From: a virus | Strand: one strand, 5' to 3' | Virus record (IMG/VR): IMGVR_UViG_3300038366_000033 | Span: 1-64,000 of that record | Length of the DNA stretch: 64,000 nucleotides | Shown here: positions 3,471 through 19,635 of the stretch, piece after piece | How the letters are laid out: each line of letters opens with the position of its first letter | How positions within the stretch are numbered: the first letter of the stretch is position 1 | The notes under the pieces: generated by a model | Told to the model about the DNA's origin: nothing | Database searches by the model: none | What the model saw: only the letters and a program-made list of their open reading frames with translations | Translations under genes and position numbers: made by a program

Positions 3471-3474
3471 TAGA

Positions 3475-4725: not shown

Positions 4726-4726
4726 A

Positions 4727-5420: not shown

Positions 5421-5711
5421 ATGACAAAGCGAATTATGGCCGGAAACGGTTTGGAAGAGCTTGAAGGTTACGATCTCGAAGAAGGCAAAACCTACTACAT
5501 AGGCGCCTCGGACTCTCCAGATCTGATTTACATTGAGAGCCTGGAGAAAAACCGAGTATTTTACAGAACGAGACCTTACACCGAGGAGAAGCTTATGTCC
5601 GAGAAAAGAGACATCGCTGAGGATTTGATAAAGAGAGGTTGCGAGACCATGGAGGAAAAGGGCCGAGACAAGTTTGTTAATCGAGATACGGACCTAGACG
5701 AAATCCAGTAA
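5421..5711 (+). CDS. hypothetical early protein
   Basis: Start defined by the repeat ending ATACCG-ATG. Confidence 0.7.
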   Translation: MTKRIMAGNGLEELEGYDLEEGKTYYIGASDSPDLIYIESLEKNRVFYRTRPYTEEKLMSEKRDIAEDLIKRGCETMEEKGRDKFVNRDTDLDEIQ

Positions 5712-5768
5712 CTTTTCTTTCTTTTCTTTATCATTTACTTTATAAGGTTTCTTATCACTATAATAACT

Positions 5769-5975
5769 ATGGTTATGACAACCTATGACCTACACAGCCC
5801 AGATGGACAACACGAGAAAAGCGGAACAATCAGGACCGAGGCGAGCTTTGAGACGGTGAGAGAAGCTAGAGATTCTGTAAAAGCTGATAGTGGCGAGATA
5901 TATCACTTGGTCCAGTTTCTGAACAAGAGAGGTTTCGAGACCGAGGCAGTCGACACAAAAAAGATTTTTTTCTGA
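5769..5975 (+). CDS. hypothetical early protein
   Basis: Follows a repeat promoter. Confidence 0.65.
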   Translation: MVMTTYDLHSPDGQHEKSGTIRTEASFETVREARDSVKADSGEIYHLVQFLNKRGFETEAVDTKKIFF

Positions 5976-6031
5976 TTTTTCTTTTCTTATACACATACTT
6001 ATAAGAGTTGTTCCGTATAAATATAATACCG

Positions 6032-6208
6032 ATGACACGAGAACGAAACTACTTCAAGGGATCCAAGGACTCCAGAAAATCCGCTTTCCAGAAAGAGGGC
6101 AGCTCCATCGTATGGGTGGAGGACGGTTCGAAGAACTCGGGAGTCAAGCAACAGATGAGCTTCGACGAGGATTTTATTCTGGACCTTGCCGAGAAGATCA
6201 GGAACTGA
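6032..6208 (+). CDS. hypothetical early protein
   Basis: Start defined by the repeat. Confidence 0.65.
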   Translation: MTRERNYFKGSKDSRKSAFQKEGSSIVWVEDGSKNSGVKQQMSFDEDFILDLAEKIRN

Positions 6209-6256
6209 CCCCTTCTCCTTTTCTTTATAATATTTACTATACATATCATATATACC

Positions 6257-6460
6257 ATGACTAGCAAGAAGAAAAAGACTGTTACAATCGAAGAACACCA
6301 CTACGAGTTTCTAGATAAAACCAACATCAACGCGTCGAAGGTCCTGAGAGAGGCAGTGAATCATCTCAGATCTCAGATGACTCATGAGGAAGAGGAGCTA
6401 CTGAGGAAGGCAGCGAATCCAGGACCCGAGCAATTCGAGGGTATGGAGGTAAGGGAGTAA
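6257..6460 (+). CDS. ribbon-helix-helix (CcdA/antitoxin-like) DNA-binding protein
   Basis: KKTVTIEEHHYEFLDKTNINASKVLREAV pattern. Confidence 0.65.
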   Translation: MTSKKKKTVTIEEHHYEFLDKTNINASKVLREAVNHLRSQMTHEEEELLRKAANPGPEQFEGMEVRE

Positions 6461-6511
6461 GCTTTACCTTTATAACTCTTGTTATACATATCATACATAG
6501 GGTGACACCAC

Positions 6512-6652
6512 TTGACAACAAAACTACTTTGGCAAAACAAAGGCGAAGTTGAGCTTCTAGAAGACTACGATAACGACTACTTCAAAATCAGAGATGCCTT
6601 CGGTAACGAGGTTATGGTTCACAGAAAAGAGGTCGAATACATTGACTCTTGA
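6512..6652 (+). CDS. hypothetical microprotein, 46 aa
   Basis: TTG start after GGGTGA SD and a degenerate repeat. Confidence 0.5.
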   Translation: MTTKLLWQNKGEVELLEDYDNDYFKIRDAFGNEVMVHRKEVEYIDS

Positions 6653-6839
6653 GGAAAAGTTCTCCCGACTTGATGGGGCAGAGGTAACCGGATCTGATCC
6701 GGTAACCTTTACCATCGAGAACATCGATCCTGAGAGCGACGCGATGGTATTCAAGAACTTGAGAATGAACTACACCTTCGAGGTCGAGAGAGTGGATATC
6801 AACGACGACGGGAATCTTGAAGCGGTGATCAGAGAATGA
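6642..6839 (+). CDS. hypothetical protein
   Basis: Acidic ORF; probable TTG start. Confidence 0.55.
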   Translation: MTLEEKFSRLDGAEVTGSDPVTFTIENIDPESDAMVFKNLRMNYTFEVERVDINDDGNLEAVIRE

Positions 6840-7054
6840 GATACGCAATCTGGAATACCCATCAGGGCAAGTTTCTTGGTCCTATGGACCACTCGACTCC
6901 CGACACATTCACCGATAAGGAGAATCTATTCGAGTTCTTTCAGGATCAGGTCGATACCCATGACCTAGACGATATCGCGCACCTCAGAGTGGTCAGGGTC
7001 GAGATCGCGGACGACGTGGACGAGGAGGCCGCGGAGGTGGTCCAAGTTGAGTAA
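6836..7054 (+). CDS. hypothetical protein
   Basis: ATGA overlap. Confidence 0.6.
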   Translation: MRYAIWNTHQGKFLGPMDHSTPDTFTDKENLFEFFQDQVDTHDLDDIAHLRVVRVEIADDVDEEAAEVVQVE

Positions 7055-7199
7055 ACATCCCATCATCGAGAACATGGACTCACAGGTCGACTCAGCTTAT
7101 TCTCACACCTGTAAGTTCTGCCAGGAGGAGTTTAACTCCGAGAGGATGTTCAGGCTTCATCAGAAGAGGGAGCATGACGAGAATCTCCCCTTCATTTAG
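7047..7199 (+). CDS. C2H2 zinc-finger microprotein, 50 aa
   Basis: GGAGGTGG SD, TTG start; CKFCQEEFNSERMFRLHQKREH. Confidence 0.65.
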   Translation: MSKHPIIENMDSQVDSAYSHTCKFCQEEFNSERMFRLHQKREHDENLPFI

Positions 7200-7256
7200 T
7201 TTTTCTCCTTCTTATACATTCTTTTATAAGGTTTACCTTCTATAAGTATAATACCG

Positions 7257-7409
7257 ATGGTTGCTATACCAGAAGATATGCTTCCCGAAGGCTTCTCCAA
7301 TCACATGGGGATGCCGATGTGCCCTTGCGGTAACATAACGGAAGTGGACGGAGAATTTCCATGCGAACACGAAAACCCAGTAAAGAAACTACTAGCAGGT
7401 GCTATATAA
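7257..7409 (+). CDS. Cys/His microprotein, 50 aa
   Basis: Follows a repeat; CPCG..CEHENP. Confidence 0.6.
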   Translation: MVAIPEDMLPEGFSNHMGMPMCPCGNITEVDGEFPCEHENPVKKLLAGAI

Positions 7410-7540
7410 TGAGACCTATAGATGAAGCGATGGAAGAAGCGGCAGAACATCTAGGTGAGGCTGCCGACTGCCTTCAGGACGCAGGAGATACTCAGGCACT
7501 AATCAAGGTCGAGGAAGTACTCGCGGAGGTGGAACCATGA
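7409..7540 (+). CDS. hypothetical microprotein, 43 aa
   Basis: TAATG and ATGA coupling on both sides. Confidence 0.55.
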   Translation: MRPIDEAMEEAAEHLGEAADCLQDAGDTQALIKVEEVLAEVEP

Positions 7541-7896
7541 GTGGATGGAAGACCGCACGATTCCACGTCGGGGACGACGTAGATGGCAAAATCGAGAGCT
7601 ACTGTGAAGCTAACGAGTACGCTAGTAAACGTGGACTCAACGGAATAGTCATCCGAGGATACGACGCCAAGATTAAAGAAGCGGTCAGGAAGATTATTCC
7701 AGGCGAGGAAGGTAAAGTACTTATCGTCGAGGCGAACGATACCTCCGACTCTGGAGATGCTTTCCTGTATGAGATCACCGAGGACTACGAGCTTGAACAC
7801 GTCGAGACCAAGCGAGGCTACGAGGGGGCGCGAGGTTACGACGCTATAGGCTACATGAGGGACGAGTACGACGTGGACGCGCCTGCTGGTCCATAA
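7537..7896 (+). CDS. hypothetical protein
   Basis: GGAGGTGG SD; acidic. Confidence 0.7.
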   Translation: MSGWKTARFHVGDDVDGKIESYCEANEYASKRGLNGIVIRGYDAKIKEAVRKIIPGEEGKVLIVEANDTSDSGDAFLYEITEDYELEHVETKRGYEGARGYDAIGYMRDEYDVDAPAGP

Positions 7897-7953
7897 CCTT
7901 TTTTCTTCTTATACACATACTTATAAGTCTTGTTCTGTATAAATATAATACCG

Positions 7954-8505
7954 ATGTTACAGACGAAAAAAATTGAAGTACCAGACCTAGTACTCAACCA
8001 CGAGGAAAAGGACGTAACCGTAAAACTCTACAGAGAACAGGATCCCGAGGACCCACTATGTTGGCCGTCCCTAGTTACACTGGACCTAGACCATTCACGT
8101 TATGACCTAGGAGACCGTAATATCGAGAAGGAAGGTAAGACAGTCATGAAGGCTATGCCAGTGTACCTGTACGACCATTCAGGTATAACTATCAGTACTG
8201 AGCCTTTCCAGTCACGTTGGGACTCCTCCAAGATTGGAACAGCCTATGTCTTCGAGGAGGACGTCGAGGACCGAGGTGTCAAGGAAGAGCACCGTACCAA
8301 GGAACGTGCGAAGCAATGGATCGAGGACCGCGTCGAACAGTACGATAACTACCTTCGAGGTGAGATATACAGATTCGAGCTATACGAGGATGGAGAACGG
8401 ACAGACTCCTGTGGTGGCTTTCATGACTGTGGATACATGGGACGTAACGAGATCCTATGGGACCACATAGGCTATGAGAGAGAGGACTTCGAGGTGATTG
8501 ATTAA
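7954..8505 (+). CDS. conserved phage/MGE early protein (YLYDHSGITIST..WDS..DSCGGF)
   Basis: Motif recalled from phage and MGE leading regions; start from the repeat. Confidence 0.7.
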   Translation: MLQTKKIEVPDLVLNHEEKDVTVKLYREQDPEDPLCWPSLVTLDLDHSRYDLGDRNIEKEGKTVMKAMPVYLYDHSGITISTEPFQSRWDSSKIGTAYVFEEDVEDRGVKEEHRTKERAKQWIEDRVEQYDNYLRGEIYRFELYEDGERTDSCGGFHDCGYMGRNEILWDHIGYEREDFEVID

Positions 8506-8654
8506 TGTCTTACCGCGTCCAGTTTACCCAGACCCTCTTGGTTGAAGAGGACTCCGAGGACGAGGCAGTCAGTACTGCAAAGAACGTTCTGTTCGACCAC
8601 TTGGGGCGCAAGGTCCTCAAGGAAGAGGACTTCGAGGTGCTAGGTGAAGAATGA
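8505..8654 (+). CDS. hypothetical microprotein, 49 aa
   Basis: TAATG coupling; GAGGTGA SD. Confidence 0.55.
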   Translation: MSYRVQFTQTLLVEEDSEDEAVSTAKNVLFDHLGRKVLKEEDFEVLGEE

Positions 8655-8734
8655 GACCGCGTTGCGAGAAGTGTCAGATCCGCTTTCTCCACCACTCCAA
8701 TCTGGTGTATCACTGGAAACAGGAACACCAGTAA
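8651..8734 (+). CDS. minimal single C2H2 zinc-finger peptide, 27 aa
   Basis: MRPRCEKCQIRFLHHSNLVYHWKQEHQ matches C-x2-C-x3-F-x5-L-x2-H-x4-H; GGTGA SD and ATGA overlap. Confidence 0.6.
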   Translation: MRPRCEKCQIRFLHHSNLVYHWKQEHQ

Positions 8735-8780
8735 CTTTCCCTTTCTTTTATAAGATTTCTTATACATAACTATACTACCG

Positions 8781-9053
8781 ATGACACGATTTATATTGAC
8801 CGCATACGAGCCTGTATATCAACATTCGGAATACAGAGTGACTACGAACCGCGAACCCGAGAAAATTCATTCAGAGGTTGATTCTCACATAGGGTCTCTG
8901 GACGGACAGTTCCACGTACGGGATACCGAGCTACAGATAAGCTACCGCGTCGTGGATTTCCAGGCAGGTCTGGACCTGATAAACGCTCTGAAGGACGACG
9001 TCATAGATAAAGAGCCTGAGGACGTAAGAGATAGTGAGTACGTCGAGGCATAA
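8781..9053 (+). CDS. hypothetical early protein
   Basis: Follows a repeat. Confidence 0.7.
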   Translation: MTRFILTAYEPVYQHSEYRVTTNREPEKIHSEVDSHIGSLDGQFHVRDTELQISYRVVDFQAGLDLINALKDDVIDKEPEDVRDSEYVEA

Positions 9054-9113
9054 TCTCTTTTTTCTTTCTTATACACACCTTTATAAGATTTCTTACCACT
9101 TACTATAATACCG

Positions 9114-9500
9114 ATGACAGAATTACGAGAACAGGTTGTATTTGGACGGTCAATCGACTGGGAAGAAGAATCAGTCGGTGGAGTCGTACGCTTCAAAGAT
9201 TTAAAAACTGAGGATGCAAAACGTCTGATGAAAGCCGGAGAGATTGACCCGGAAGGTCGACAGAACAACTCACCGATGGCGAGTGAGTTTATCAAGTTCA
9301 TGGACTCTGTTGACGACCACGATATTCGTGCGATAGGGTATATGGTCGCACCGGACAGGAGCGATTCCAGGATTACGATCGAGGGCTTGAGAGTCGATGA
9401 GTCAATATCCAGAGATCTGATGCTCAGGTTTACCAACAAGTTCAGAATGGCTGATGAGTTCACGGTAGAGGAAGACTACCTGAGGTGCTGGTATGACTGA
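9114..9500 (+). CDS. hypothetical early protein (QNNSP..IGY..LRCWYD)
   Basis: Follows a repeat. Confidence 0.7.
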   Translation: MTELREQVVFGRSIDWEEESVGGVVRFKDLKTEDAKRLMKAGEIDPEGRQNNSPMASEFIKFMDSVDDHDIRAIGYMVAPDRSDSRITIEGLRVDESISRDLMLRFTNKFRMADEFTVEEDYLRCWYD

Positions 9501-9630
9501 GGTATACTGGGTGAAATCCCCGGATCTGCCTGAGAATACTATCAGGTCTTACACTGCCGACGACATAGAGCACCTAGAAGATAAGCTCAGGGACGACGGG
9601 CTCGACTGTTACGACCTAGTACATCAGTAA
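9493..9630 (+). CDS. hypothetical microprotein, 45 aa
   Basis: GAGGTG SD; overlaps the upstream stop. Confidence 0.55.
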   Translation: MTEVYWVKSPDLPENTIRSYTADDIEHLEDKLRDDGLDCYDLVHQ

Positions 9631-9690
9631 TTCCTTTCTTCTTTCTTATACACATAGTTATAAGGTTTTCTGGCTATAAATATAATACCG

Positions 9691-9948
9691 ATGAGCTATT
9701 TTGACCTAACACCGGATACGTACACACCAAAAGAACTTGCAGACGAAATCAACATAAACGTCGACGAGGACCGGGGGAGATATGATACACTCACCAGTAT
9801 AGTAATCGCTCTTGAAGACGTACAGTACCTGAGCGGAGACGACGATGTTAAGTGGGAGGTGATAGCCAGACTTACCGAGGCACTTAACGACCTTGAACCG
9901 GATATGGACGTGGAGGTAACAGACCGGAAAGTCAAGGTCTACCACTGA
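9691..9948 (+). CDS. hypothetical early protein
   Basis: Follows a repeat. Confidence 0.7.
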   Translation: MSYFDLTPDTYTPKELADEININVDEDRGRYDTLTSIVIALEDVQYLSGDDDVKWEVIARLTEALNDLEPDMDVEVTDRKVKVYH

Positions 9949-10003
9949 TTTTTTCTTCTTATACACATGTTTATAAGTCTTGGGTTCTATAAGTATAATA
10001 CCG

Positions 10004-10462
10004 ATGGAAGAACTACAACGAGATCTAGCGGAGAAGTTAACTCTGTTTATGGAGGAAAATCAGCAATTTCACATCTCTAGGGAGTACACATCCGACGACG
10101 GCCTGACCCTGCAGGTACTTGTAGACTTTGGCATTGAGGACCGGGACGATGGTATGGCTTACCCTGCTGACGTGTTCGCGCGGTTCCAGGATAACATGGA
10201 GTACCTGCACGATCAGGGGATCCTTGAGGAAGGAGACAGGATAGAGGATATAAACAACGATGAGCTGAGAGATCTAATAGGAAATCACGAGCTCTTTACG
10301 GAGTTGAGGTCCGACCTGATTCGTGCGGTCAGACAGGTATTTGATATACCTAGGTCCACTAAGTTGGGTGTTCCGGCCCAGATGTCAGACGTCGATATAG
10401 ACGGACGCGTTGACATACACTACGGAATATGGAATACAAGGGACGGGGTCGAGAGCCCCTGA
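10004..10462 (+). CDS. hypothetical early protein
   Basis: Start defined by the repeat. Confidence 0.7.
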   Translation: MEELQRDLAEKLTLFMEENQQFHISREYTSDDGLTLQVLVDFGIEDRDDGMAYPADVFARFQDNMEYLHDQGILEEGDRIEDINNDELRDLIGNHELFTELRSDLIRAVRQVFDIPRSTKLGVPAQMSDVDIDGRVDIHYGIWNTRDGVESP

Positions 10463-10515
10463 TTTTCTTCTTATCAATTCATTTATAAGGTTTCTTATAC
10501 ATAACTATAATACCG

Positions 10516-11091
10516 ATGGGACAGTACTATACGATAGCTAACCTTGACGCGAAAGAGTACGTAAAACCTAGAAAACTTGGATCAGGACTTAAGCTCTGGG
10601 AGATCAGTATGACAAATGTTCCTCAGATCCTGCCTTACCTACTGAGAGAGACAGATAGTTCAGGTGGTGGCGACCCGAGAGTCAGACTTGAGAGAGACCC
10701 CGACATGGATGTAGAAGAACAGCTTGAGATCGAGAGACGGCGCACAGCAGAAGTTTACTCCATGATGGGTAACTGGGCAGGAGATAGAGTTGTGTTCCTA
10801 GGCGATTATACAGAAAGGGAATCTGAGGAATACGGGAACCTATACCAAGAGGTCCAGCAGAGCGAGGAATGGACGGACGTTTCCCGGACCGTGGCTAAAG
10901 AGGTCGCAGACTTTATCGACCACGAGGACAAGAACCCGGAAGTGCCTAAGGACCCACAGGAGTGCGACCACGAGGATCCTATGATTACCAGATACAGCGA
11001 CGAGGAAACATACGGGGACTTCTACTGTAGGGAATGTCATATGTCAAAAGAGCTAGAGACGGAAGAAGAACTAGGTGAAATCCGCGCCTAA
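10516..11091 (+). CDS. conserved phage protein (MGQYY..NLD..KLWE..WAGDRV..GDY)
   Basis: Recognisable motif set; C-terminal Zn site. Confidence 0.7.
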   Translation: MGQYYTIANLDAKEYVKPRKLGSGLKLWEISMTNVPQILPYLLRETDSSGGGDPRVRLERDPDMDVEEQLEIERRRTAEVYSMMGNWAGDRVVFLGDYTERESEEYGNLYQEVQQSEEWTDVSRTVAKEVADFIDHEDKNPEVPKDPQECDHEDPMITRYSDEETYGDFYCRECHMSKELETEEELGEIRA

Positions 11092-11219
11092 ATTTTTTTT
11101 CTTTCTATTTCTACATATATAAAAGTTGAGTGTTATGTATTTTGATTAGGGATCCGGTGTTAACCGTACGTGTCTTATGTACAAGTATATAAAGGTTGTT
11201 ATACAATACTTCAATACCG

Positions 11220-12017
11220 ATGGAAACACAACAAAAACAGGATGTTCCAGACACAACAGACGTACTGGAATCTATGCTGAAAACCAACACCGGACGTCAC
11301 CCACTCGACTCCGGTTCACACTATGGACGCAACTTTGAAGAAAATCAGAAAATAAAAGATCTAGAAGATGCACCTGTCTCGACCCATGACATCAGGAACT
11401 ACGATGACGAAATAGAATTGATTAGTTATGTATCGACGTATCATTTCCTGAAATACCGCGTCGATTATGATTCTGAAGCCCATGAGCTACAGCAACAGTT
11501 CGAGGACTACTGTGATAATCTGGATGCTCTAGAGGGTGAATCATGGTTAAGCTGCATGGAAATGCTCTTTGGGGGCGCGACCGTCAACACCTACAACCAT
11601 GAGCACATAGTCGATCAGGTCCTGCAGTTCTCTGGTTTCTCACTCGAACACGTGGGGTATGTATCTGATCGAGACCCGAGGCCCGAGGACCATGAGTTCG
11701 TACTCGGTGAACGTATAGTTCAGGCCGTCGAGGATATACATGGAGACTTTGTAGCTCTACAGATACACAATGGGTGCGACGTACGTGGGGGATACACATC
11801 TCCGACCGTATTCCGTGCGACCCATGGACTTGATTACCTGATTATGTCTCCAGGAACCGACGTATCATGTACTGAGTGCGGATGGGTCGCTGCTCAACGT
11901 GATGGCTATCATAAAGAGGGTGCATGGGACGAACTCGAATACCGTGAGGAACCGGATCTGATCTTCCATACGGAATGTGGGTCCGAATGTACGGTAAGGT
12001 CGATGGTACAAATATAG
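11220..12017 (+). CDS. conserved viral protein (NTG..LDSG..YGR; QIHNGCDVRGGY)
   Basis: Recognisable motifs; C-terminal Zn ribbon. Confidence 0.7.
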   Translation: METQQKQDVPDTTDVLESMLKTNTGRHPLDSGSHYGRNFEENQKIKDLEDAPVSTHDIRNYDDEIELISYVSTYHFLKYRVDYDSEAHELQQQFEDYCDNLDALEGESWLSCMEMLFGGATVNTYNHEHIVDQVLQFSGFSLEHVGYVSDRDPRPEDHEFVLGERIVQAVEDIHGDFVALQIHNGCDVRGGYTSPTVFRATHGLDYLIMSPGTDVSCTECGWVAAQRDGYHKEGAWDELEYREEPDLIFHTECGSECTVRSMVQI

Positions 12018-12043
12018 GCACATTCCCTCTTCCATTCTTATTT

Positions 12044-12213
12044 TGAATACCTATTCGGTGAGACACACACACAACGGTAAAGTTCCCATATTAAATACCT
12101 TTCCGTGGCAGACTGTTATGAGTACTAAGTGAAAAGGCAAATTCAATTGAGATCTGAAGGTCCATTCGGTGAGACACACACACAGTGCCAACTTTCCCAC
12201 TTTATAAACCTAT
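12044..12213 (-). ncRNA. tandem pair of self-promoted small RNA candidates (handle GTGTGTGTGTCTCACCGAAT..TTCA)
   Basis: Two copies 111 bp apart, each with an AGGT(A/T)T(T/A)TAA TATA-like box and GGGAA upstream. Confidence 0.55.
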
Positions 12214-12285
12214 CAAGCAAGATCTAATTCAATCGAGTAGTAGAATAGAGAGCTAAGGTACCTGAGAATACTAATAAGGCGGCCA

Positions 12286-12349
12286 TTAGTTACCAAAGGG
12301 GTAACTAACTAACGGGGTATACTCGGGGTTAACCGGACCACGCCGTGGA
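12286..12349. repeat. cluster of inverted repeats
   Basis: TTAGTTACC-N5-GGTAACTAA perfect 9-bp stem, plus GGTTAACC and CCACG-C-CGTGG. Confidence 0.6.
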
Positions 12350-12465
12350 CCATACTACAACTATTACTCACGCTCGTTTATAAGTATTAATGTGACTGGA
12401 AAACTGGAAGCAACATGGAGATCATGCGCACCCTTATAAGCTTTAGTATACAATATCTTATTACA

Positions 12466-12651
12466 ATGGAACGAACTACACTTGCGGTCCCTGTCAAGTT
12501 CAGGGAGATGCTCAACGAAAACTACGACGGCGAAAACGATCTAGAACGACTCAAGCTCTGGGCCAATGAATACGAGGTAAGCGAAGAACACGGTGACGTG
12601 CCCGACCAGATGATGATAAAGGTGGAGAACATGATCGAGAAAGAGGCCTAG
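12466..12651 (+). CDS. small DNA-binding (RHH-like) protein
   Basis: MERTTLAVPVKFREML; CTTATAAG promoter upstream. Confidence 0.5.
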   Translation: MERTTLAVPVKFREMLNENYDGENDLERLKLWANEYEVSEEHGDVPDQMMIKVENMIEKEA

Positions 12652-12653
12652 GG

Positions 12654-12812
12654 ATGAGCTCTCTCTCGGAATATGCCGAGTACGAACACGTTCTTAGTGA
12701 GAAGGACGTCATAGAACTTTACTCAGCCTGTGAGAGGGGCGACATTGAACTGACAGATGAGCTATTGAGAAACCTGCAATTTGAAGCGGAAAAGATCCGA
12801 GAACAGGCATAG
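12654..12812 (+). CDS. hypothetical protein, 52 aa
   Basis: Manual translation; acidic. Confidence 0.5.
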   Translation: MSSLSEYAEYEHVLSEKDVIELYSACERGDIELTDELLRNLQFEAEKIREQA

Positions 12813-12881
12813 TCCCTCTTACTTCTTTTCAGATCTGAGGACCATAATTCTTTTCAGAGCTTCTATATATACTAAGACACA

Positions 12882-13280
12882 ATGACAGCAGACTACTACG
12901 CGGACGGCAAGAAGATTGTAGTTAAAGCCAAGGATGGAAGAGAGTTTCACAAAGAGGCCACGGTAACAGAGCCAGATAGGAATAAGTACTACAATATTAG
13001 AGTGGGCGGCAAAGATGGCGCGGCCAAGTTCACAGATGTTGCACGATTTAACGAGGAGGAAGAGTTCCTGCTGGATGAGGTAAGATTGATCTATAACGGA
13101 GAGATGGTCGCGCTCAGAAAGGTCGAACCTGTATATGTACAACCATCGGATGATATAGAGATCACATATGAGTTTGAGCTCAAAAGAGACAGGGGAGTAA
13201 TCAAGGCGATGTCTCCGGTTTCCAGTGGAAACAAAGGTTGGATCTCAAGGGTGAAGGGGGGTCTTGGGCGTCTTCTATGA
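12882..13280 (+). CDS. hypothetical protein
   Basis: 132 aa ORF after TATATATA. Confidence 0.65.
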   Translation: MTADYYADGKKIVVKAKDGREFHKEATVTEPDRNKYYNIRVGGKDGAAKFTDVARFNEEEEFLLDEVRLIYNGEMVALRKVEPVYVQPSDDIEITYEFELKRDRGVIKAMSPVSSGNKGWISRVKGGLGRLL

Positions 13281-13410
13281 GCTTTCACTTGAGCGTACTA
13301 TCAGAGAGAGTTCCACATGAAATCAGGGTGAGATCTACTACTCAATCGGTCAATCTAGGGGTTGATTAGTGATCTCAGAGGAAGTTTCTCTTACAAGTTC
13401 GGTCGGTATA

Positions 13411-13469
13411 GCACACTTTCTGAACGCCTAGGCACACTTTCTGACCACCCGATGTAAAGTACACTTTAC
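13411..13469. repeat. direct repeat GCACACTTTCTGA x2 plus palindrome GTAAAGT-AC-ACTTTAC
   Basis: Copies at 13411 and 13432; palindrome at 13454-13469; lies in a ~350-bp non-coding gap. Confidence 0.7.
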
Positions 13470-13641
13470 GTAATACTTTGTAATATGCCCTCATATGTTC
13501 CTGAGTACTCCCTCTCACTTCTGATACAGACACCTAGAACTTCAGTACTATACAGTAACGACTAATCGAGTATTACAATTTTCACTGGCTCTAAGAATAA
13601 ATACCCTTTATATATTTTACTACCCCTATTATTTGTTACCT

Positions 13642-13821
13642 ATGACCGACGACGACTCTACTTCATGTCCAAGTTGTGACGCACCAGCACCAAAAGCACA
13701 GATAGAAACTCTAGGCGAGTGTGAGAGATGTCACTATAACTCCGATCAGGAGATCACTTCCGCGAATACAGAAACCAAGAAGACCAGTGACGCTTCTATT
13801 ATCGCCAAGTGGCAGAAGTAA
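13642..13821 (+). CDS. small Zn-finger protein
   Basis: CPSC..CERC. Confidence 0.55.
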   Translation: MTDDDSTSCPSCDAPAPKAQIETLGECERCHYNSDQEITSANTETKKTSDASIIAKWQK

Positions 13822-13997
13822 TGACACGCTGGAATCGACAGTTACGGAAACGCCTTCAGGAGGCGCATGAGGACACCGAGCACCCTGAATTGAAGAAACG
13901 CCTAGAGAGACTTAATGAGGAACTTTCAGAGACACCTCTACTTTCAGACGACGAGTTCGACGAGCTAGAGAAACGGATCAACGGCATAGTTTGTTAA
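13821..13997 (+). CDS. hypothetical protein
   Basis: TAATG coupling. Confidence 0.55.
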   Translation: MTRWNRQLRKRLQEAHEDTEHPELKKRLERLNEELSETPLLSDDEFDELEKRINGIVC

Positions 13998-14050
13998 CGA
14001 CACCATACTTATAAGTTTTCTTACTTAATTAGTACATAGGGTGACAACCT

Positions 14051-14335
14051 ATCGAAGTTACACTAAAGGCTGAAGAACCAGTCTATCAACTTTCAGAATT
14101 TAACTCAAGCATGGAGAGAAAAGCTAAAAGAAACACAACTATGGAAGGTCTCGAACACGCCAATCGTTTTTACTGGATTGAGGCGCATGACGACTCTGAG
14201 GAAGTACTTGTCGTAAGCGACTTTATGGTTGCAGAACAGATTATGTCTAGATTCAACGAGGGCGACTTTGACTCGCTTCAGGAAGCTGCTGACATGACCG
14301 ATAACGCACACATCGAGGAGGATCGCCCATGGTAG
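14051..14335 (+). CDS. hypothetical protein, possible ATC start
   Basis: GGGTGA SD at 14039 precedes an in-frame ATC; first ATG is at 14111. Confidence 0.55.
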   Translation: MEVTLKAEEPVYQLSEFNSSMERKAKRNTTMEGLEHANRFYWIEAHDDSEEVLVVSDFMVAEQIMSRFNEGDFDSLQEAADMTDNAHIEEDRPW

Positions 14336-14541
14336 TTCATACGTGTGTCGAGTGCGGTAAAATCTATCGTGCCGGAACCGGAGAGTCTGAATGTCCACAC
14401 TGTGAGACCACCCAGCAGGTGACAGATGATGAGTAAGAGATGTTGTGGCGACACAGACATCTTCCAAGACATAGACGGACAGATAAGATGTTCGTCATGC
14501 GAAAACATCATCTATGACTATGTATCAACAGGTGATATAGA

Positions 14542-14940
14542 ATGAAGATGGTCGATTCTCACAAACTTACCTGCGAGTGTGGAGAGGAAATCGAGAACAT
14601 AGACGAAGCCAAGGAACACTTCCAGTCCCGACCCGACGAGATGAGAATGAACGAACACCTAGACGGTTACAACTTCCATGGGTTCGAGTTTGTCGGGTTC
14701 GATGCCCACACTCACAGTGCCCGATGGTCGCATCAGGACCTCGATTTATGGTTCTACGCGACACCTGCCTCATGGTTCATGCCGGACGAGGAAGGTTATG
14801 TGCAGTTCCAGGTTGAGGGCGGCGGAGCCTTCAGGGAGCTTCAGGGGCAGGTCGTCCACAAGGCTTTCTTCGAGGAGACCCTGAGCTTTCAGGAATACAG
14901 GGAAATGGTAAAACACTTCATAGAGGATCACTTCCTATGA
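14542..14940 (+). CDS. hypothetical protein with N-terminal Zn finger
   Basis: CECG..H; GGTGA SD. Confidence 0.65.
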   Translation: MKMVDSHKLTCECGEEIENIDEAKEHFQSRPDEMRMNEHLDGYNFHGFEFVGFDAHTHSARWSHQDLDLWFYATPASWFMPDEEGYVQFQVEGGGAFRELQGQVVHKAFFEETLSFQEYREMVKHFIEDHFL

Positions 14941-15119
14941 AGGAGACCTACGAGGTTATGCTGTATGAGGACCCCGATACCTACATACACTATGCCGACA
15001 CCCGGGATAATGTCCCGAGATACGTGGAAGAACACGCCGAAAACGTGGAAAAGGCAGATCTGAGCTATCTGGAAGACAACTTTGTTACCGGCGACATCAG
15101 CCGTCTACTTGAGGAGTAA
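14937..15119 (+). CDS. hypothetical protein
   Basis: ATGA overlap. Confidence 0.55.
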   Translation: MKETYEVMLYEDPDTYIHYADTRDNVPRYVEEHAENVEKADLSYLEDNFVTGDISRLLEE

Positions 15120-15141
15120 CTCTCCTCGGCGGCTATTTCCT

Positions 15142-15378
15142 ATGACATATCCTATTACCGAGAGTATGTACGAGTTACTTGAAATCTTCGAAAACAACAA
15201 CCAAAACCTATCAGAGATCGCGGAAGAACACGACATGGACTACTCGACTCTCTCACGCACAAAAGACCTTATGAAGGACAGAGGCTGGATCAACGAGGAT
15301 CCTACGTACAATTACTCTGTATACTTCAACAACGAGAGAGGTCAGAAAGTCCTGAAACTGTTGAGGGAGATGCCATGA
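15142..15378 (+). CDS. MarR-like winged-helix regulator
   Basis: NLSEIAEEHDMDYSTLSRTKDLMKDRGWI..NERGQKV. Confidence 0.7.
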   Translation: MTYPITESMYELLEIFENNNQNLSEIAEEHDMDYSTLSRTKDLMKDRGWINEDPTYNYSVYFNNERGQKVLKLLREMP

Positions 15379-15971
15379 CCCAGACGTTCATGAAGACCCT
15401 CAACAACATATCCAAGGCCCTCTGGGAGAAGAGTGACGACGGCGAAATATCCGAACAGGAGATCAAAAAGACCATCAAGGTCGAGGCAGGATATACGGTC
15501 GTCGATAAGTACTGGGACGAGCTTCACGATTTCAACAGAGTCGAACAGGTCCCGGAGACCCAGACGTGGATAGTCTCGAAACCCGAGAAAGTTGGTATAG
15601 AAAAGACCAATACGGACGTCGAGAAGAGATCGAAGAAAGTCCTAGTGCCGGAAGATGTTTTACAGGCAGCGAAACAGTACGGCGTCGATTTCTCGAAAGT
15701 CTTTACGGAGGCACTGATCGAGGAAGTTTCCGACGTCAAGTCCTTTCTCGAAACCTACATGGGCGGAAAGTACAACGACACTGAGTCAAAGTACATCTTC
15801 GAGCTATTCAAGAAGGGTCTCGATACCCATGAAGGCAGAGATACAGAGAGAGCCAGGAGAGATAAGAGACGCAGAGAGCTCTACAAGGACATCTTCGAGA
15901 CCAGTAAAGCCGATAGAGAACACATAGGCGAACTCAGGAAGAAGGCGGCAGAGCTTGGCCAAATACTATAA
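15375..15971 (+). CDS. protein with internal RHH/CcdA-like domain
   Basis: KKVLVPEDVLQAAKQYGVDFSKVFTEAL. Confidence 0.6.
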   Translation: MTQTFMKTLNNISKALWEKSDDGEISEQEIKKTIKVEAGYTVVDKYWDELHDFNRVEQVPETQTWIVSKPEKVGIEKTNTDVEKRSKKVLVPEDVLQAAKQYGVDFSKVFTEALIEEVSDVKSFLETYMGGKYNDTESKYIFELFKKGLDTHEGRDTERARRDKRRRELYKDIFETSKADREHIGELRKKAAELGQIL

Positions 15972-15995
15972 AAGACTTTGGTGATAGTAACAAGT

Positions 15996-17210
15996 ATGGG
16001 ACTCGACACGAACAAGGGGTTGTTAAAACACAACGCCGAGCAGTACGCGAAGAAGCGCAACGTAGACCCAGCTCTCATTGACTTCGAAAGCATTATTGAC
16101 ACAGAACTTTCTGACGGTGAGAACTGGAGAAAAATCGACAACCAAGTAAAAAAACACATGGACCCAGATGCAAAGCTGGATGAGGAAACACCTCACAAGG
16201 ACGAGATCGCTGCCAAGGAGAGAGAGATTCAGGAAAAATACATAGAGGAAATAGAGAAAGATAAGAAGCTCGATCTCCACAAACAGTTCAAGGACGATAT
16301 GCACGAGGAGGTACAGTCCTTTTACAGTATGTTCAACTACTACCTCAAGTCCATATGCCGCGGACATCATACTTCATTCATGGTCAACGCGGATCCTGGA
16401 ATCGGTAAGTCGTATCAAACCACACAGACTCTGATCAACGAGGTCGGCGAGGACAAGTTCACCAAGTCCCCTGCCGTTGCCTCGCCGTTCCAGTTTTACA
16501 AACAGCTTTGGGAACTTGAGGAGTCACAACAGGACATTCTGGTCCTTGACGACATCGAAGGTCTGCTTCGAAGTAAGAAGGCACTCGCCATTCTGAAACA
16601 GGCGACGTGGACAGAGACCGAGGACAGATTTGTCGGTTGGAACTCTTCTCCCTCGAAGCTTCAGACCAAAAACGGGAAGGACATACCGAAGGAGTTCAAG
16701 TTCACTGGCAAACTTATCATGATATTCAACGAAGTGCCAGAGGACGACATCATCTTCGAGTCACTGCGAGATCGATGCTTCTACTATGAGCTCTCCTTTG
16801 ACTATGAACAGAAGTGTCAACTTCTACGGGCTCTCGCCGACAAGGGTATGGGTTACGATGTCGATCAGGCCGATCGCGAGGAGATTGCATCGTGGCTCAT
16901 CGATGTCTCGAACCCGGCGACGTCGGATCTGAACTTACGTACGTTCGAACTTGCACTCAAACACTTCAAGGGTGCGCGTGACATTCAGGACATCGATGTT
17001 ACGTGGCGTGACGTCATACGTACAAACATGGACATCGACAGAAAGCTCGAAGCGGCACGTGAGGTCATCAAGGATCCTTCACTCACATCTCCTGGAGAGA
17101 GACAGGACGAGTTCAAGTCCATGACAGGACTCTCCAAGAGAACTTACAGGAACGCACGTGAAGAGCTACGTGAAAACTCACAGGAGATCAGGGAGATTCT
17201 GGACCAGTGA
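15996..17210 (+). CDS. AAA+ ATPase
   Basis: Walker A ADPGIGKS, Walker B LVLDD, arginine finger SLRDRC. Confidence 0.85.
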   Translation: MGLDTNKGLLKHNAEQYAKKRNVDPALIDFESIIDTELSDGENWRKIDNQVKKHMDPDAKLDEETPHKDEIAAKEREIQEKYIEEIEKDKKLDLHKQFKDDMHEEVQSFYSMFNYYLKSICRGHHTSFMVNADPGIGKSYQTTQTLINEVGEDKFTKSPAVASPFQFYKQLWELEESQQDILVLDDIEGLLRSKKALAILKQATWTETEDRFVGWNSSPSKLQTKNGKDIPKEFKFTGKLIMIFNEVPEDDIIFESLRDRCFYYELSFDYEQKCQLLRALADKGMGYDVDQADREEIASWLIDVSNPATSDLNLRTFELALKHFKGARDIQDIDVTWRDVIRTNMDIDRKLEAAREVIKDPSLTSPGERQDEFKSMTGLSKRTYRNAREELRENSQEIREILDQ

Positions 17211-17349
17211 GTTGGAAAACTGGAAACAGTATATGGAACACGCGTTCATCAAGCAGTACTGGTCGCTCGGGGGTTCGACTCCTCCGGCTGCTATCTATGG
17301 TAACAACTACCATGCATACCATACAACTTTACGGCGAGGTAAAATCACA

Positions 17350-17715
17350 ATGATGGATCAACCATTTTACATGGTCGAGGTATCAAGATCGGACGCGGAA
17401 AAGATGCAGACGTACATGTTCGAAAACAACCTTCAGCATTACTTCGACATGGACGAGAGAAGAGTCGAGAAGGTCGAGAGAGTACCACTGGAAAAGATCA
17501 ACCACTTCACAGAGGAACACGTACAGGAACTCTTCAGAAGCCTAGAACAGGAATACGACTTCAGCTTCGAGAAGGACCACTCGGACATGAAGAAATCTGT
17601 CCAAGAGATGAGAGAGGCTATCAGAGATGCTCTGGTAAGTGAGCTCATCCAGAAGGGAGATAAGGACGACACGTTCTCAGAGGCTCTTTTGAGAGGTGTA
17701 GAAGATGCCGGTTAA
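17350..17715 (+). CDS. hypothetical protein
   Basis: Acidic part of ORF 17158-17715; start uncertain. Confidence 0.55.
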   Translation: MMDQPFYMVEVSRSDAEKMQTYMFENNLQHYFDMDERRVEKVERVPLEKINHFTEEHVQELFRSLEQEYDFSFEKDHSDMKKSVQEMREAIRDALVSELIQKGDKDDTFSEALLRGVEDAG

Positions 17716-17874
17716 AGAGGTAACAGTCGAGGATCCTGGAGACGGATATATCAAACACGAACTCGGCGACGCCAAAGTCGAGGTAATTTACCGGGCGGAC
17801 GACGAACTAGAGGTGGTCTTTACAAACGGCGACCGCTATGTGTACCCGATTTCAAGAGTGGTGTACTACGTAAA

Positions 17875-18336
17875 ATGAAAAGGAGAGTGAGAGTAAAAAC
17901 AGGGGTGTCGATGCTTTCAGTCGCCTTACTTGTTGTTATCTCATTCGTACTGGGACAGGCGACATCGAACCCCGAGCTCACATTGAATCAGGCCGAGACC
18001 CCAGCATGGGAGTACATGCACGTCAACTACACGGGGAGCTTTCACTCTGGCGGATACCACTTTCACTTCAGACAGCAAGGCGAGGGCATGTTAAGAAACA
18101 ACTCTGTGGGGATTACAAGAGCCAAGGACCCCAGAAATGACATATACATCAGGACAGATAGGTCCGGCAAAGCGATCATCAGGACGTGCCGACACGAGGT
18201 CCTGCACCACTACTTCCCGAACTACAAGCACCAAGATGATGTCAGCAGGTGGGACGACCCTATCTATATGTTAGAGGACAACGTCGAGTTCGCCACCTGT
18301 AAGTACATGATGCAGAAGATTCAGAGACTATCCTAG
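17875..18336 (+). CDS. secreted or membrane-anchored HExxH metallopeptidase-like protein
   Basis: N-terminal hydrophobic segment; RHEVLHH. Confidence 0.6.
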   Translation: MKRRVRVKTGVSMLSVALLVVISFVLGQATSNPELTLNQAETPAWEYMHVNYTGSFHSGGYHFHFRQQGEGMLRNNSVGITRAKDPRNDIYIRTDRSGKAIIRTCRHEVLHHYFPNYKHQDDVSRWDDPIYMLEDNVEFATCKYMMQKIQRLS

Positions 18337-18590
18337 GCCGGGACAAAATACCGGCCCTCTCCACATTCTGGACACTCGAAGTGGAATAGCTCCTTACCTC
18401 TTTCGATATCGTCATCTAGGTGACGATCACCTGTTTTCTTATATACTTCTAGTACCTCTTCGATTCCCTTCCAGATACGTCTTCCCTTGATCGTGATATC
18501 GCACTTGTTTGGTCCGGTCGGTTTCATCTCCTCGGAGGTTCTCGCTTTGAACTTGGCCTTGATCTTCTCGGTCTTCTCGTCGAAGTCCAT
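18333..18590 (-). CDS. small Zn-ribbon protein
   Basis: CPECG; divergent from the ncRNA pair. Confidence 0.6.
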   Translation of the reverse strand: MDFDEKTEKIKAKFKARTSEEMKPTGPNKCDITIKGRRIWKGIEEVLEVYKKTGDRHLDDDIERGKELFHFECPECGEGRYFVPA

Positions 18591-18617
18591 ATACACATAT
18601 TAGAGACCCAGACACAT

Positions 18618-18850
18618 AAAGGTATTTAAAGCGGGAACTTTGGGCTTGTGTGTGTGTCTCACCGAATGAGTGTTCAATTCCAGAAGTTTCCACATGAAAC
18701 CAAGGTAAACACAAAAAGGTATTTAAGGTGGGAAAGTTGCCGCCGTGTGTGTGTCTCACCGAATGAGTGTTCAGATTCAACCTGCATTTAAAAGGGCCCA
18801 TCTTACAGAATCTGTAAACGTTTCTGAACAGTTTTCCACATAACCTTTTT
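18618..18850 (+). ncRNA. second tandem pair of self-promoted small RNA candidates (same handle)
   Basis: Copies 97 bp apart: AAAGGTATTTAA..GGGAA..GTGTGTGTGTCTCACCGAATGAGTGTTCA; T-run at 18846. Confidence 0.55.
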
Positions 18851-18879
18851 GAATGACTTTTACATGACAACAGCTTACA

Positions 18880-19635
18880 ATGGCATTAGACAGAGATAAG
18901 TTGAAGAAAGCCGGCAAAGCTGCCGGTCTCGGTGTCGTCGGAGCCGGAGTTGGGGCACTAGGATCCCAGCAGGTAGACGACGCACCATCAAAGGAGAAAG
19001 TACAAAACCTACAAGATCAGAAAGCTGACCTAGAGGAAAAGGTCGCCAATCTGGAAGAGAGACCTACCCAGGAGGACCTAGACAATAGAGTCGCGGACCT
19101 CAAGGAAGATACGGTAGCTCAGAAGGAGTATCTAGAGCTCAAAAACAAGTACGAACAGGCATACACTCAGGAAGAGGTAGACGCGCTAGTCGCAGACGCC
19201 GAAGAGAGAGAAGGACTTGTTGGCTACCTACCAGTACTGGTAGACGAGGAAGTCGAGCTCAGGAACGGCGATGTCGAGGCCAAACATGACGTACAGGCAA
19301 CAGACGGCAACCTAGAACACCATGTGGTCGCAGATGACGCTGACTTTGACGAGTCAGATCTCGACAACGAGGAATACGACCAGATCAGAGCCGTTTACAG
19401 ACACGACGACGGTCATCAGTATGAAGTACTTGTCAGAGCCTTCGAGGACGGAGACGACGCAGACGAGTACGAGGGAGAGCTCAGACAGGCAGTAGAGTTC
19501 GCAGACTACGACGACCAGATAGATGCAGACGCAGACGTCATAAGATCGGGCGATACAGTACTGTACCTTAAGGGCGAGGCAGACGTAGACGACTACGACA
19601 CTTACAGGTACGACAAACTTGTAGGCCAGTATTAA
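18880..19635 (+). CDS. membrane-anchored coiled-coil acidic protein
   Basis: N-terminal basic and Gly-rich hydrophobic segment followed by heptads. Confidence 0.65.
   Translation: MALDRDKLKKAGKAAGLGVVGAGVGALGSQQVDDAPSKEKVQNLQDQKADLEEKVANLEERPTQEDLDNRVADLKEDTVAQKEYLELKNKYEQAYTQEEVDALVADAEEREGLVGYLPVLVDEEVELRNGDVEAKHDVQATDGNLEHHVVADDADFDESDLDNEEYDQIRAVYRHDDGHQYEVLVRAFEDGDDADEYEGELRQAVEFADYDDQIDADADVIRSGDTVLYLKGEADVDDYDTYRYDKLVGQY

Follow-up and report, generated by a model that had tools for sequence, protein, structure and literature searches.

Four short intergenic units in a virus genome, each with a constant block behind a promoter-like box and a variable sequence after it, raise the question of whether they specify guide or decoy RNAs, as originally predicted, or regulate the genes around them. 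The window analysed here, 64,000 nucleotides long, comes from the record of an uncultured archaeal (haloarchaeal) tailed virus with a halophile-type acidic proteome, an assignment based on its RadA/Rad51 and RNR genes and on the acidity of its proteins (pI about 4.3-4.6). We consider it probable, though well short of certain, that the units form a small second class of intergenic repeats carrying promoters, arranged as two tandem pairs of regulated promoters that fire outward from a strain-variable block of 6.5 kb. They look like a kind of repeat already shown in halovirus HF2, and nothing we found supports a guide or decoy RNA system.

Four copies of a promoter-like repeat

A search of the whole 78,377-bp record found exactly four copies of the 20-mer GTGTGTGTGTCTCACCGAAT, at 12053-12072 and 12164-12183 on the minus strand and at 18648-18667 and 18745-18764 on the plus strand, and 100 shuffles gave zero occurrences, confirming the predicted two tandem copies on each strand. 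As had also been predicted, every copy (4/4) is preceded by AGGT(A/T)T(T/A)TAA and then GGGAA(CTTT/AGTT), with the archaeal BRE/TATA-like box about 18 nt 5' of the 20-mer, and each is followed by N5-6 TTCA and then by mostly non-alignable sequence. The tails, whose first letters had been quoted correctly, had been called unrelated; this holds for most of their sequence, but those of units 3 and 4 have the motif (A)GTTT(T)CCACAT(G)AA(A)CC in common. All four units are intergenic, and across the record the 20-mer, the TATA plus GGGAA pattern and CTCACCGAAT are confined to them. Their A and B subtypes run in the order B-A ... A-B across the two pairs. A further family of repeats in this virus comprises about 14 promoter modules heading leaderless early genes, in which TTATAAGG sits 33 nt 5' of the ATG; units 3 and 4 and these early modules have ACACA(T/A)A 5' of the TATA box in common. 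The features of the locus are as follows.

11220..12017, plus strand: phrog_11344 gene, the final one in the early array, transcribed toward units 2 and 1
12018..12043, minus strand: unit 1 tail, a 26-nt purine-rich spacer reaching the stop codon of the convergent plus-strand gene
12044..12072, minus strand: unit 1 invariant 20-mer (12053-12072) and AGGTATTCA; predicted start at the 3' end of the GT run
12073..12103, minus strand: unit 1 promoter-like part, AAAGGTATTTAA (12091-12102) and GGGAACTTT, then a variable 6-nt spacer
12104..12154, minus strand: unit 2 tail, directly abutting the unit 1 promoter-like part; its T4 run is lost in strains
12155..12183, minus strand: unit 2 invariant 20-mer (12164-12183) and the strain-variable GGACCTTCA
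12184..12214, minus strand: unit 2 promoter-like part, AGGTTTATAAAG and GGGAAAGTT
18333..18590, minus strand: gene for a small CxxC protein, divergent from unit 3
18618..18647, plus strand: unit 3 promoter-like part, AAAGGTATTTAA and GGGAACTTT
18648..18676, plus strand: unit 3 invariant 20-mer and GAGTGTTCA
18677..18714, plus strand: unit 3 tail, containing TTCCACATGAAACCAAGG
18715..18744, plus strand: unit 4 promoter-like part, AAAGGTATTTAA and GGGAAAGTT
18745..18773, plus strand: unit 4 invariant 20-mer and GAGTGTTCA
18774..18879, plus strand: unit 4 tail or leader, 32 hypervariable nt and then a conserved island ending CCTTTTTGAATGAC (T5 at 18846-18850)
18880..19635, plus strand: gene for an acidic 251-aa protein, 3' of unit 4, opening the next plus-strand block

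In unit 3 the BRE/TATA-like AT motif TATTTAAA occupies 18623-18630. Using the spacing of the virus's own leaderless early modules together with the TATA-to-start spacing of HF2 (IR4), we predict that unit 3 starts at about 18652-18658, at a G of 18652-18656 inside the conserved block; the motif would then lie about 26-30 nt 5' of a purine within the conserved 3' block, a sequence prediction only. With the predicted start at the 3' end of the GT run the 20-mer would span about -8 to +12, so that only about 10-15 nt of it would be transcribed. The first suggestion of self-promoted units holds: every copy has a good archaeal BRE/TATA-like box, rightly spaced from the block, and both are under purifying selection, as described below.

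Read on the minus strand, the unit 3 TATA box lies 40 nt 5' of the ATG at 18590, and because of this position it is probably bidirectional and common to the divergent gene 18333-18590, for which no other TATA-like box was found at a workable distance. Gene 18880 has an orthologue in a related strain that stands behind an early-type ...ACTACCGATG module, so promoter modules are interchangeable before this gene. The T5 at 18846-18850 is the only run of T5 or longer on the plus strand between 14.2 and 20.7 kb, and the conserved island of unit 4 may act either as a terminator or, if the gene at 18880 starts leaderless, as the site of its TATA box. For a minus-strand RNA running past unit 1, the first T5 is at 11233-11237.

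Conservation between strains

The units were compared with two strain-level contigs (L015 for units 1-2 and L022 for units 3-4) and with virome contigs. Over all four units the 20-mers showed 0 changes in 80 positions, whereas four-fold degenerate sites differed at 8.1% (Fisher p 0.003). For promoter and block together the count was 7 of 249 positions; this part of the units is under purifying selection between strains. In unit 1, the promoter-like part differed from L015 at 4 of 31 positions, all in the spacer beside the GT run, the invariant block with AGGTATTCA at 0 of 29, with no variant listed in the virome contigs, and the tail at 7 of 26 (Fisher p 0.008 against four-fold sites), a third version of this tail being present in viromes. 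Unit 3 had no differences from L022 in its promoter-like part and 4 in the 38 nt of its tail, and the first 32 nt of the unit 4 tail differed at 14 positions. The outer tails, those of units 4 and 1, diverge faster than four-fold sites, which counts against the promoter reading in that it explains them only by invoking recombination at module junctions. Where tails differ, they do so by substitutions and 1-nt indels, their sequences remaining alignable, with no spacer swaps.

Between the two pairs, the 6.5-kb block varies in gene content among strains, with strain breakpoints immediately adjoining the repeats. One gene of the block is AAA+ ATPase-like; its product of 410 aa is the largest among the ten genes searched at 11.2-19.6 kb. 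The unit 3 tail motif TTCCACATGAAACCAAGG also occurs at the 13311 locus, identical over 18 nt in strain L015.

Other readings of the units

Solitary CRISPR units, RNA anti-CRISPRs and guide RNAs likewise have a constant part followed by a variable part and their own promoter, but the units analysed here have no Rfam or CRISPR match, no stable or conserved handle structure, no targets for their tails and no recognisable effector nearby, and their tails change by point changes rather than by spacer swaps, so the guide or decoy system of the original prediction is not borne out. Against Rfam 15, including its CRISPR-DR families, nothing reached the gathering score and the one match at E<=10 was a chance lncRNA (E 0.89), leaving the handle without a CRISPR-DR match at that threshold. 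Searched against the virus's own genome, GenBank phages and PLSDB plasmids, the tails matched nothing, and Pfam and PHROGs returned no effector nuclease or RNA-binding protein among the ten genes at 11.2-19.6 kb. The small GAA..TTC hairpin described at the end of the handle is not kept, since strain variants of unit 2 replace GGACCTTCA by GGGCCCTCA or GGGCC-TCA, and the units carry no RNA-structure signal, none folding better than shuffles (z +0.72, +1.71, +0.03 and -0.94 across the four units).

The mildest form of the guide or decoy idea makes the units genes for four small non-coding RNAs, with a common 5' seed of about 12-20 nt (GUCUCACCGAAU...) and fast-evolving bodies, which could act on a host target by base pairing or as decoys. 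We regard this as unlikely. Each unit would have its own promoter, the part of the 20-mer predicted to be transcribed is invariant across paralogues and strains, the outer tails diverge faster than neutral, and units 2 and 1 have no gene to serve, all of which would fit such RNAs. In unit 4 there is in addition a conserved T5 about 95 nt downstream, 30 nt before the ATG at 18880, and a stem UGUUCAGA/UCUGAACA, formed by the handle end with the tail, in which L022 carries one compensatory change from G-C to A-U. Besides the folding results and the searches of Rfam, phages and plasmids, however, what weighs against them is that units 1-3 have no conserved T5 or longer run downstream to serve as terminator, so that discrete short RNAs are not indicated for these three, and that in the virus genome complements to the handle stay below 10 nt and those to the tails do not exceed 12 nt. 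Some late genes carry GAGGTGA or GGAGG, but an anti-Shine-Dalgarno action would involve 5 nt only (UCACC against GGUGA), and the TATA spacing would leave most of the GT run untranscribed.

We are slightly more doubtful still that the units represent something new, be it a halovirus small-RNA family or, in a second version, a promoter switch gated by (GT)5/Z-DNA. In the first version RNAs with the same 12-20 nt seed and faster-than-neutral bodies could act on host RNA or protein, and paired A/B-type promoters could stand at both edges of the strain-variable gene block; in the second, the (GT)5 run could sense supercoiling during infection.

It is improbable that a recombinase, transposase or replication protein uses the units as its DNA sites, in which case they would either delimit a 6.5-kb segment able to move or invert or serve as ORB-like origin elements. 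Two inverted copies at each end do resemble multi-site transposon ends, and the intervening block is strain-variable in genes and includes the AAA+ ATPase-like gene. But Pfam and PHROGs identified no transposase, integrase or invertase in the block, and no strand-changing, empty-site or 12.0-to-18.8 kb joint was seen at the units in four virome runs, represented by contigs, which drop rare forms, so the inversion sites originally offered as an alternative fare worse than the guide reading. The B-A ... A-B order is not that of a simple inverted duplication, and DNA sites give the conserved TATA boxes no role. For an origin, GT stretches adjoin ORBs at a Haloferax origin (PMC1868953), the locus has a perfect ORB core (13220-13232), and the unit 3 tail contains the mini-ORB-like TTCCACATGAAAC. 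We compared the units with the ORB consensus GTTCCAGTGGAAAC-AAA----GGGGG, looking also for a flanking AT-rich unwinding element and an adjacent orc1/cdc6 (PMC1868953). The units themselves do not match the consensus, the unit 3 tail motif agrees with it at 10 of 13 positions, which is chance level, as is the number of ORB-like matches with <=3 mismatches (24 found against 21 +/- 4.7 expected), the record has no Cdc6_C or MCM match, and the arms stand 6.5 kb apart with coding sequence, not an AT-rich unwinding element, between them; on these grounds the units do not qualify as an archaeal origin.

Tiny peptides starting at the ATG of CCGAATG are for practical purposes refuted: three of the four units do have this ATG, as had been noted, with frames of 24, 41 and 26 codons, but in both strains unit 1 has GAATAGG instead, L015 has lost the ATG at 12035 in the unit 1 tail, and the 26-aa frame of unit 4 in the window corresponds to 16 unrelated aa in L022, leaving no coding signal.

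Halovirus repeats and a possible role for the units

For the promoter reading, the closest comparison is with the class I intergenic repeats of HF2, where transcription starts at a G inside a conserved 19-bp gamma block whose mutation abolishes promoter activity; these repeats are proposed binding sites for viral regulators, and some drive long counter-transcripts or act bidirectionally (PMC8707807). In both tailed haloviruses the short repeats are confined to intergenic DNA and unique in the genome, combine a BRE/TATA motif with a conserved block spanning the start, and fall into distinct classes tied to gene modules on either strand, within a similar layout in which small genes make up the early arm and the late arm faces inward. 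The HF2 repeats are conserved in sequence and position in close relatives. The comparison here is at strain level, where the repeat is kept perfectly in two contigs and in the virome contigs. In contrast to HF2, the repeats of our virus number only four, grouped as two tandem pairs that point away from a single 6.5-kb block, and their invariant block consists of a (GT)5 run and CTCACCGAAT instead of an AT-containing gamma motif. Conservation may also reach further into the transcript, to about +12 (+21 with TTCA) against +5 to +10 in HF2. It speaks against the promoter reading that the invariant stretch exceeds the length of most initiator regions and is not AT-rich at -10, that units 2 and 1 have no gene to serve, that the conserved T5 and the stem of unit 4 would suit a discrete short RNA as well, and that start site and activity, both measured in HF2, are here predictions from sequence. 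Since blastn matched the units to no GenBank phage record and HF2 IR4 is unrelated in sequence, the analogy is functional and not by descent, and the units are IR-like rather than homologues.

The promoter-early stem-loop (PeSL) cassettes of T4-type phages are a possible parallel, repeated promoter modules bordering small accessory genes and possibly serving as recombination linkers; they are bacterial sigma-70 early promoters with stem-loops, from a different virus group. The likeness lies in repeated promoter modules beside a strain-variable region, with breakpoints that in our virus adjoin the repeats.

As regulated promoters, each unit would be a complete archaeal promoter: an ACACA-type box upstream (in two copies only), then the BRE/TATA-like AAAGGTATTTAA, the conserved GGGAAnnTT box and finally the invariant initiator block. 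Host RNA polymerase is predicted to start at the G at the 3' end of the (GT)5 run, and we infer that the invariant block is both initiator and docking site for a virus- or host-encoded regulator, which would switch all four promoters together; the alternating GT run may add supercoiling sensitivity. Units 3 and 4 would transcribe toward the gene block starting at 18880, giving either the leader of that block or a short RNA of about 100-200 nt ending at the T5 at 18846. From units 2 and 1, non-coding counter-transcripts would enter the last early gene, unit 1 transcription running on antisense into this convergent gene (11220-12017), and might reach deeper into the early array; they could help shut off early expression. 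The geometry is that of Tant, the counter-transcript of halovirus phiH1, whose promoter faces an early lytic transcript and yields an antisense RNA leading to mRNA processing (PMC8707807); the likeness is in geometry only, with no sequence relation.

Tailed haloviruses, which lack an RNA polymerase of their own, appear to time their gene expression through repeated promoter classes, and here two sharply different classes stand side by side, the roughly 14 leaderless early modules and the four GT-run modules bordering the variable block. Were the small-RNA reading true, the units would be a virus-encoded small-RNA family in archaea, of which to our knowledge there are very few examples. As the evidence stands they are an ordinary regulatory feature, well delimited, and they make this virus a clean test case in which to ask what viral protein recognises each module, and whether outward promoters silence the early array by counter-transcription.

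The virus and its early promoter modules

We take the source to be a tailed virus, not yet cultured, that infects a salt-in halophilic archaeon. The window is the first 64 kb of a linear record estimated to be 71% complete. Among its products are RadA/Rad51 and both RNR subunits, tail proteins with PKD and lectin domains, a Mom-like protein and a DNA methylase; searches returned no tRNAs and no Rfam hits. The proteome is acidic (most proteins have a pI of 4.3-4.6, with D+E at 17% versus K+R at 10%), and the genes run rightward from ~2 to 38 kb and leftward past that, the same layout as in HF1/HF2-type haloviruses. GenBank phage records gave no nucleotide match, and no close relative was found in IMG/VR using three proteins and two DNA patterns. 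The IMG/VR queries without a result were the 251-aa plus-strand gene at 18880-19635 (gene 18880), a 9-sequence alignment of its orthologues, a primase-helicase-like 688-aa gene and the early-promoter pattern.

That pattern comes from the array of small early genes, where the following feature recurs:

3009-11231, plus strand: early module, ~14 copies, each running up to the ATG of a small gene

Each module runs from a T-rich tract through TATACACATAC, TTATAAGG and ~15 variable nucleotides to TATAATACCGATG, with an invariant block of ~13 nt around the start site. TTATAAGG begins 33 nt 5' of the A of the ATG, the spacing required for a leaderless archaeal mRNA, and the region reads as an array of leaderless early genes in which a terminator-promoter unit separates the cassettes. 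Since some 14 modules lie directly 5' of ATGs, repeated near-invariant promoter modules are the rule in this virus. The leaderless early genes contrast with several late minus-strand genes that carry Shine-Dalgarno motifs (GAGGTGA, GGAGG; starts at 46281, 50974, 58808, 60405 and 62707), and three late upstream regions have in common a ~30-nt repeat with a TTTAAAC box.

Four repeat units and their conservation among strains

Downstream of the early array, four units are built around an invariant 20-mer, GTGTGTGTGTCTCACCGAAT, which includes the (GT)5 run and is called here the handle:

12053-12072, minus strand: exact 20-mer copy, unit 1
12164-12183, minus strand: exact 20-mer copy, unit 2
18648-18667, plus strand: exact 20-mer copy, unit 3
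18745-18764, plus strand: exact 20-mer copy, unit 4

These are the only copies in the whole 78,377-bp record, degenerate ones included, and none arose in 100 shuffles. Alignment bears out the originally predicted layout: AGGT(A/T)T(T/A)TAA is followed after 3-4 nt by GGGAA plus CTTT or AGTT, a 6-nt variable spacer, the 20-mer, 5-6 variable bases, TTCA and mostly non-alignable sequence. GGGAACTTT plus TTCAA is common to units 1 and 3 (subtype A), and GGGAAAGTT plus TTCAGAT to units 2 and 4 (subtype B). In genome coordinates the subtypes follow each other as A-B ... A-B, so that in the direction of transcription the minus-strand pair reads B then A and the plus-strand pair A then B; the arrangement is not a simple inverted duplication. 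Units 3 and 4 also resemble the early modules in two elements, an ACACA(T/A)A box 5' of the TATA and an ACCGA(A)TG ending. A fifth, decayed unit at 13215-13335 was considered and rejected, as only a ~20-nt TTCCACATGAAAYCARGG motif is in common and the remainder has no convincing alignment. Upstream of unit 2, a 190-nt non-coding stretch holds three G-rich near-repeats, GGGGTAAC, GGGGTATAC and GGGGTTAAC, at 12296-12335.

A metagenome scan for the handle returned nine loci. Seven were chance matches within unrelated sequence, and promoter context was present only in the contigs L015 (1.3 kb, spanning units 2 and 1 at 93.8% identity) and L022 (1.9 kb, spanning units 3 and 4 at 95.4% identity). 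Four virome runs, consisting of DNA contigs from one 2012 study, contain the region with much microdiversity. As a neutral reference we used four-fold degenerate sites of the flanking genes, 18 of 223 of which differ (8.1%). Against this level the four 20-mers had no differences in 80 positions (Fisher p 0.003) and the promoter plus block 7 in 249 (p 0.009), while the tails between tandem promoters, those 3' of units 2 and 3, were at the neutral level (6/89). The outer tails diverged faster than neutral: 14 of the 32 positions directly 3' of unit 4 differed (p 1.5e-6), as did 7 of the 26 that follow unit 1 (p 0.008).

Between strains, the unit 1 tail is known in three purine-rich, alignable versions, which differ by substitutions and one-base indels and are not exchanged spacers. 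The small GAA..TTC hairpin is not maintained, since the bases between GAAT and TTCA of unit 2 vary across three strains (GGACCT, GGGCCC, GGGCC-). Elsewhere, an 18-nt motif in the unit 3 tail (TTCCACATGAAACCAAGG, 18688-18705) is identical to L015 85-102 on the minus strand, in the copy of the 13311 locus carried by that contig.

Promoter, small-RNA, guide and peptide readings

The TATA-like TATTTAAA of unit 3 lies at 18623-18630, and early-module spacing predicts a start at about G18652-18656, the 3' end of the GT run; the TATA-to-start spacing of halovirus HF2, whose intergenic repeats are promoters, predicts the same start for the units. The invariant 20-mer would then span roughly -8 to +12, and most of the handle would thus be promoter/initiator region rather than RNA. 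The GT run may have a parallel in the 'RY box' of the bop promoter. On the minus strand, the unit 3 TATA stands 40 nt 5' of the start codon (ATG 18590) of gene 18333-18590, which is divergent and for which no other TATA-like box stands at a workable distance.

The closest described system is that of HF2, whose seven 58-bp class I and two 29-bp class II intergenic repeats all showed promoter activity in a reporter assay (Russ, Pfeiffer and Dyall-Smith 2021, PMC8707807). There the start site is a G inside the conserved gamma block, with a TATA ~26 nt before it, and activity was lost when gamma was mutated; the classes differ in the gene modules that they serve, some repeats are bidirectional or drive long counter-transcripts, and control by sequence-specific viral factors was proposed (PMC8707807). 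The bidirectional TATA known from HF2 (PMC8707807) is what we propose for unit 3 and gene 18333-18590. The present units have every HF2 feature that is readable from sequence. Their sequences do not resemble those of the HF2 repeats, and the activity and start site measured in HF2 are predictions here. The units are therefore filed as HF2-like in working and not as homologues.

The most likely reading, held with moderate confidence, is that the four units make up one class of promoters whose initiator block binds a regulator. A putative regulator would dock on this block in all four promoters, the pairs would transcribe outward from the strain-variable block of 6.5 kb between them (~12.2-18.6 kb), and units 2 and 1 would counter-transcribe the early array on one side. 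A TFB or TBP of viral origin was rejected as the module reader, as neither was found in the record. What this mainly leaves unexplained is why the two outer tails diverge faster than neutral.

A small-RNA family with a common 5' seed, mainly for unit 4, strikes us as unlikely. The one positive hint from the RNA-level tests is in unit 4, where the handle end UGUUCAGA can pair with UCUGAACA ~55 nt downstream; in L022 one G-C pair of this stem becomes A-U, and two end pairs are lost too. Against it, the four units folded from predicted start to tail end did no better than shuffles (z +0.72, +1.71, +0.03 and -0.94), and Rfam gave no family at gathering score and, at E<=10, only one chance lncRNA match (E 0.89). 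A C/D-box sRNA was rejected because the would-be C box differs in every unit (AUGAGUG, AUGGACC, AUAGGUA).

Possible transcript ends were sought in T5-or-longer runs, the terminator-like signal between early genes here; a T stretch is also the intergenic termination motif of Haloferax volcanii (PMC7237163). No conserved T5 follows units 1, 2 or 3, and a T4 run 3' of unit 2 is missing in both other strains. The conserved T5 after unit 4 (18846-18850) is the only one on the plus strand between 14.2 and 20.7 kb. Because it also lies at -33 to -26 from ATG 18880, where the TATA of a leaderless start would be, it may act as a terminator, as a weak promoter or in both roles. An RNA reading out of unit 1 on the minus strand would meet its first T5 at 11233-11237, in the opening part of the last early-array gene (11220-12017), which makes a counter-transcript of ~830 nt across this gene possible, an argument limited by the distance being about the average spacing of such runs.

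The guide or decoy system originally envisaged found no targets or partners. No other part of the virus matches a tail over more than 12 nt, handle 10-mers, direct or complementary, do not recur in it, and neither locus gave anything meaningful in GenBank phages or PLSDB plasmids. The exact 18-mer of the handle is absent from IMG/VR; its 16-mer has 53 matches in 185,579 species genomes, all in unrelated bacteria and called chance, and none in the archaeal genomes of that collection. Gene 11220-12017 has homologues at 29-36% identity; the loci that carry them, bacterial phages with SD/sigma-70 signals among them, contain no handle-like motif. Ten genes from 11.2 to 19.6 kb gave no informative Pfam or PHROG hit; the largest of their proteins, of 410 aa, resembles viral AAA+ ATPases in language-model features and predicted structure. 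As an anti-Shine-Dalgarno mimic or decoy the handle fails, with complementarity of just 5 nt, though several late genes carry GAGGTGA or GGAGG.

Tiny peptides, suggested as an alternative, do not account for the units: unit 1 has no ATG in either strain, an ATG at 12035 in its tail is gone in L015, and the unit 4 frame encodes 26 aa in the window and 16 unrelated aa in L022. Nor do the units match the euryarchaeal ORB consensus (GTTCCAGTGGAAAC-AAA----GGGGG; PMC1868953); TTCCACATGAAAC in the unit 3 tail agrees at 10 of 13 positions, a chance-level match, and the record has no Cdc6_C or MCM match.

The variable block and the gene beside unit 4

Inversion between the unit pairs, also raised in the original prediction, left no trace: among contigs of the four virome runs, which drop rare forms, no strand-changing joint at the units and no 12.0-to-18.8 kb joint was found, and the 6.5-kb block has no recognisable recombinase. 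Its gene content does vary among strains. In L015, 413 nt of unrelated sequence (106-518) replace window 12640-13302 (663 nt), a gene-cassette replacement inside the block, and strain homology breaks off at 13303-13311. Joins seen in virome strains connect 12382 with 17212 and 17292 with 18333, and strains with 17292-18333 missing exist, a span that includes most of the 153-aa gene 17875-18336. The 12382-17212 join in one virome strain is a 4.8-kb deletion between two copies of a 33-nt repeat (TTGGAAAACTGGAA...), which occurs three times (12396-12428, 17212-17244 and 36758-36790). The 153-aa protein (plus strand) is basic, with an N-terminal hydrophobic segment and an HEVLH (HExxH) motif, and may be a membrane-anchored metalloprotease. 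Within the block, the region 13214-13642 contains GTTTCCAGTGGAAACAAAGG, a match to the euryarchaeal ORB consensus with one extra T, whose 13-mer core occurs exactly once in the genome; a non-coding stretch of 360 nt, lying 3' of it, holds TTCCACATGAAAT and two copies of GCACACTTTCTGA and has an AT-rich end. We regard this region and the AAA+ ATPase-like gene 15996-17210 as a candidate replication origin and its initiator.

Gene 18880, 3' of unit 4, has orthologues in other metagenomes with 43-69% identity. One orthologue type begins MEISKKH, and the virome sequence before that start, ...ATACTACCGATG (loose end at 18901), is the end of an early-type module. Depending on lineage, gene 18880 is thus headed by a GT-type region or by an early-type leaderless promoter. 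This alternation fits module swapping by recombination at conserved parts, which offers a possible explanation for the sudden jump in divergence just 3' of the invariant block.
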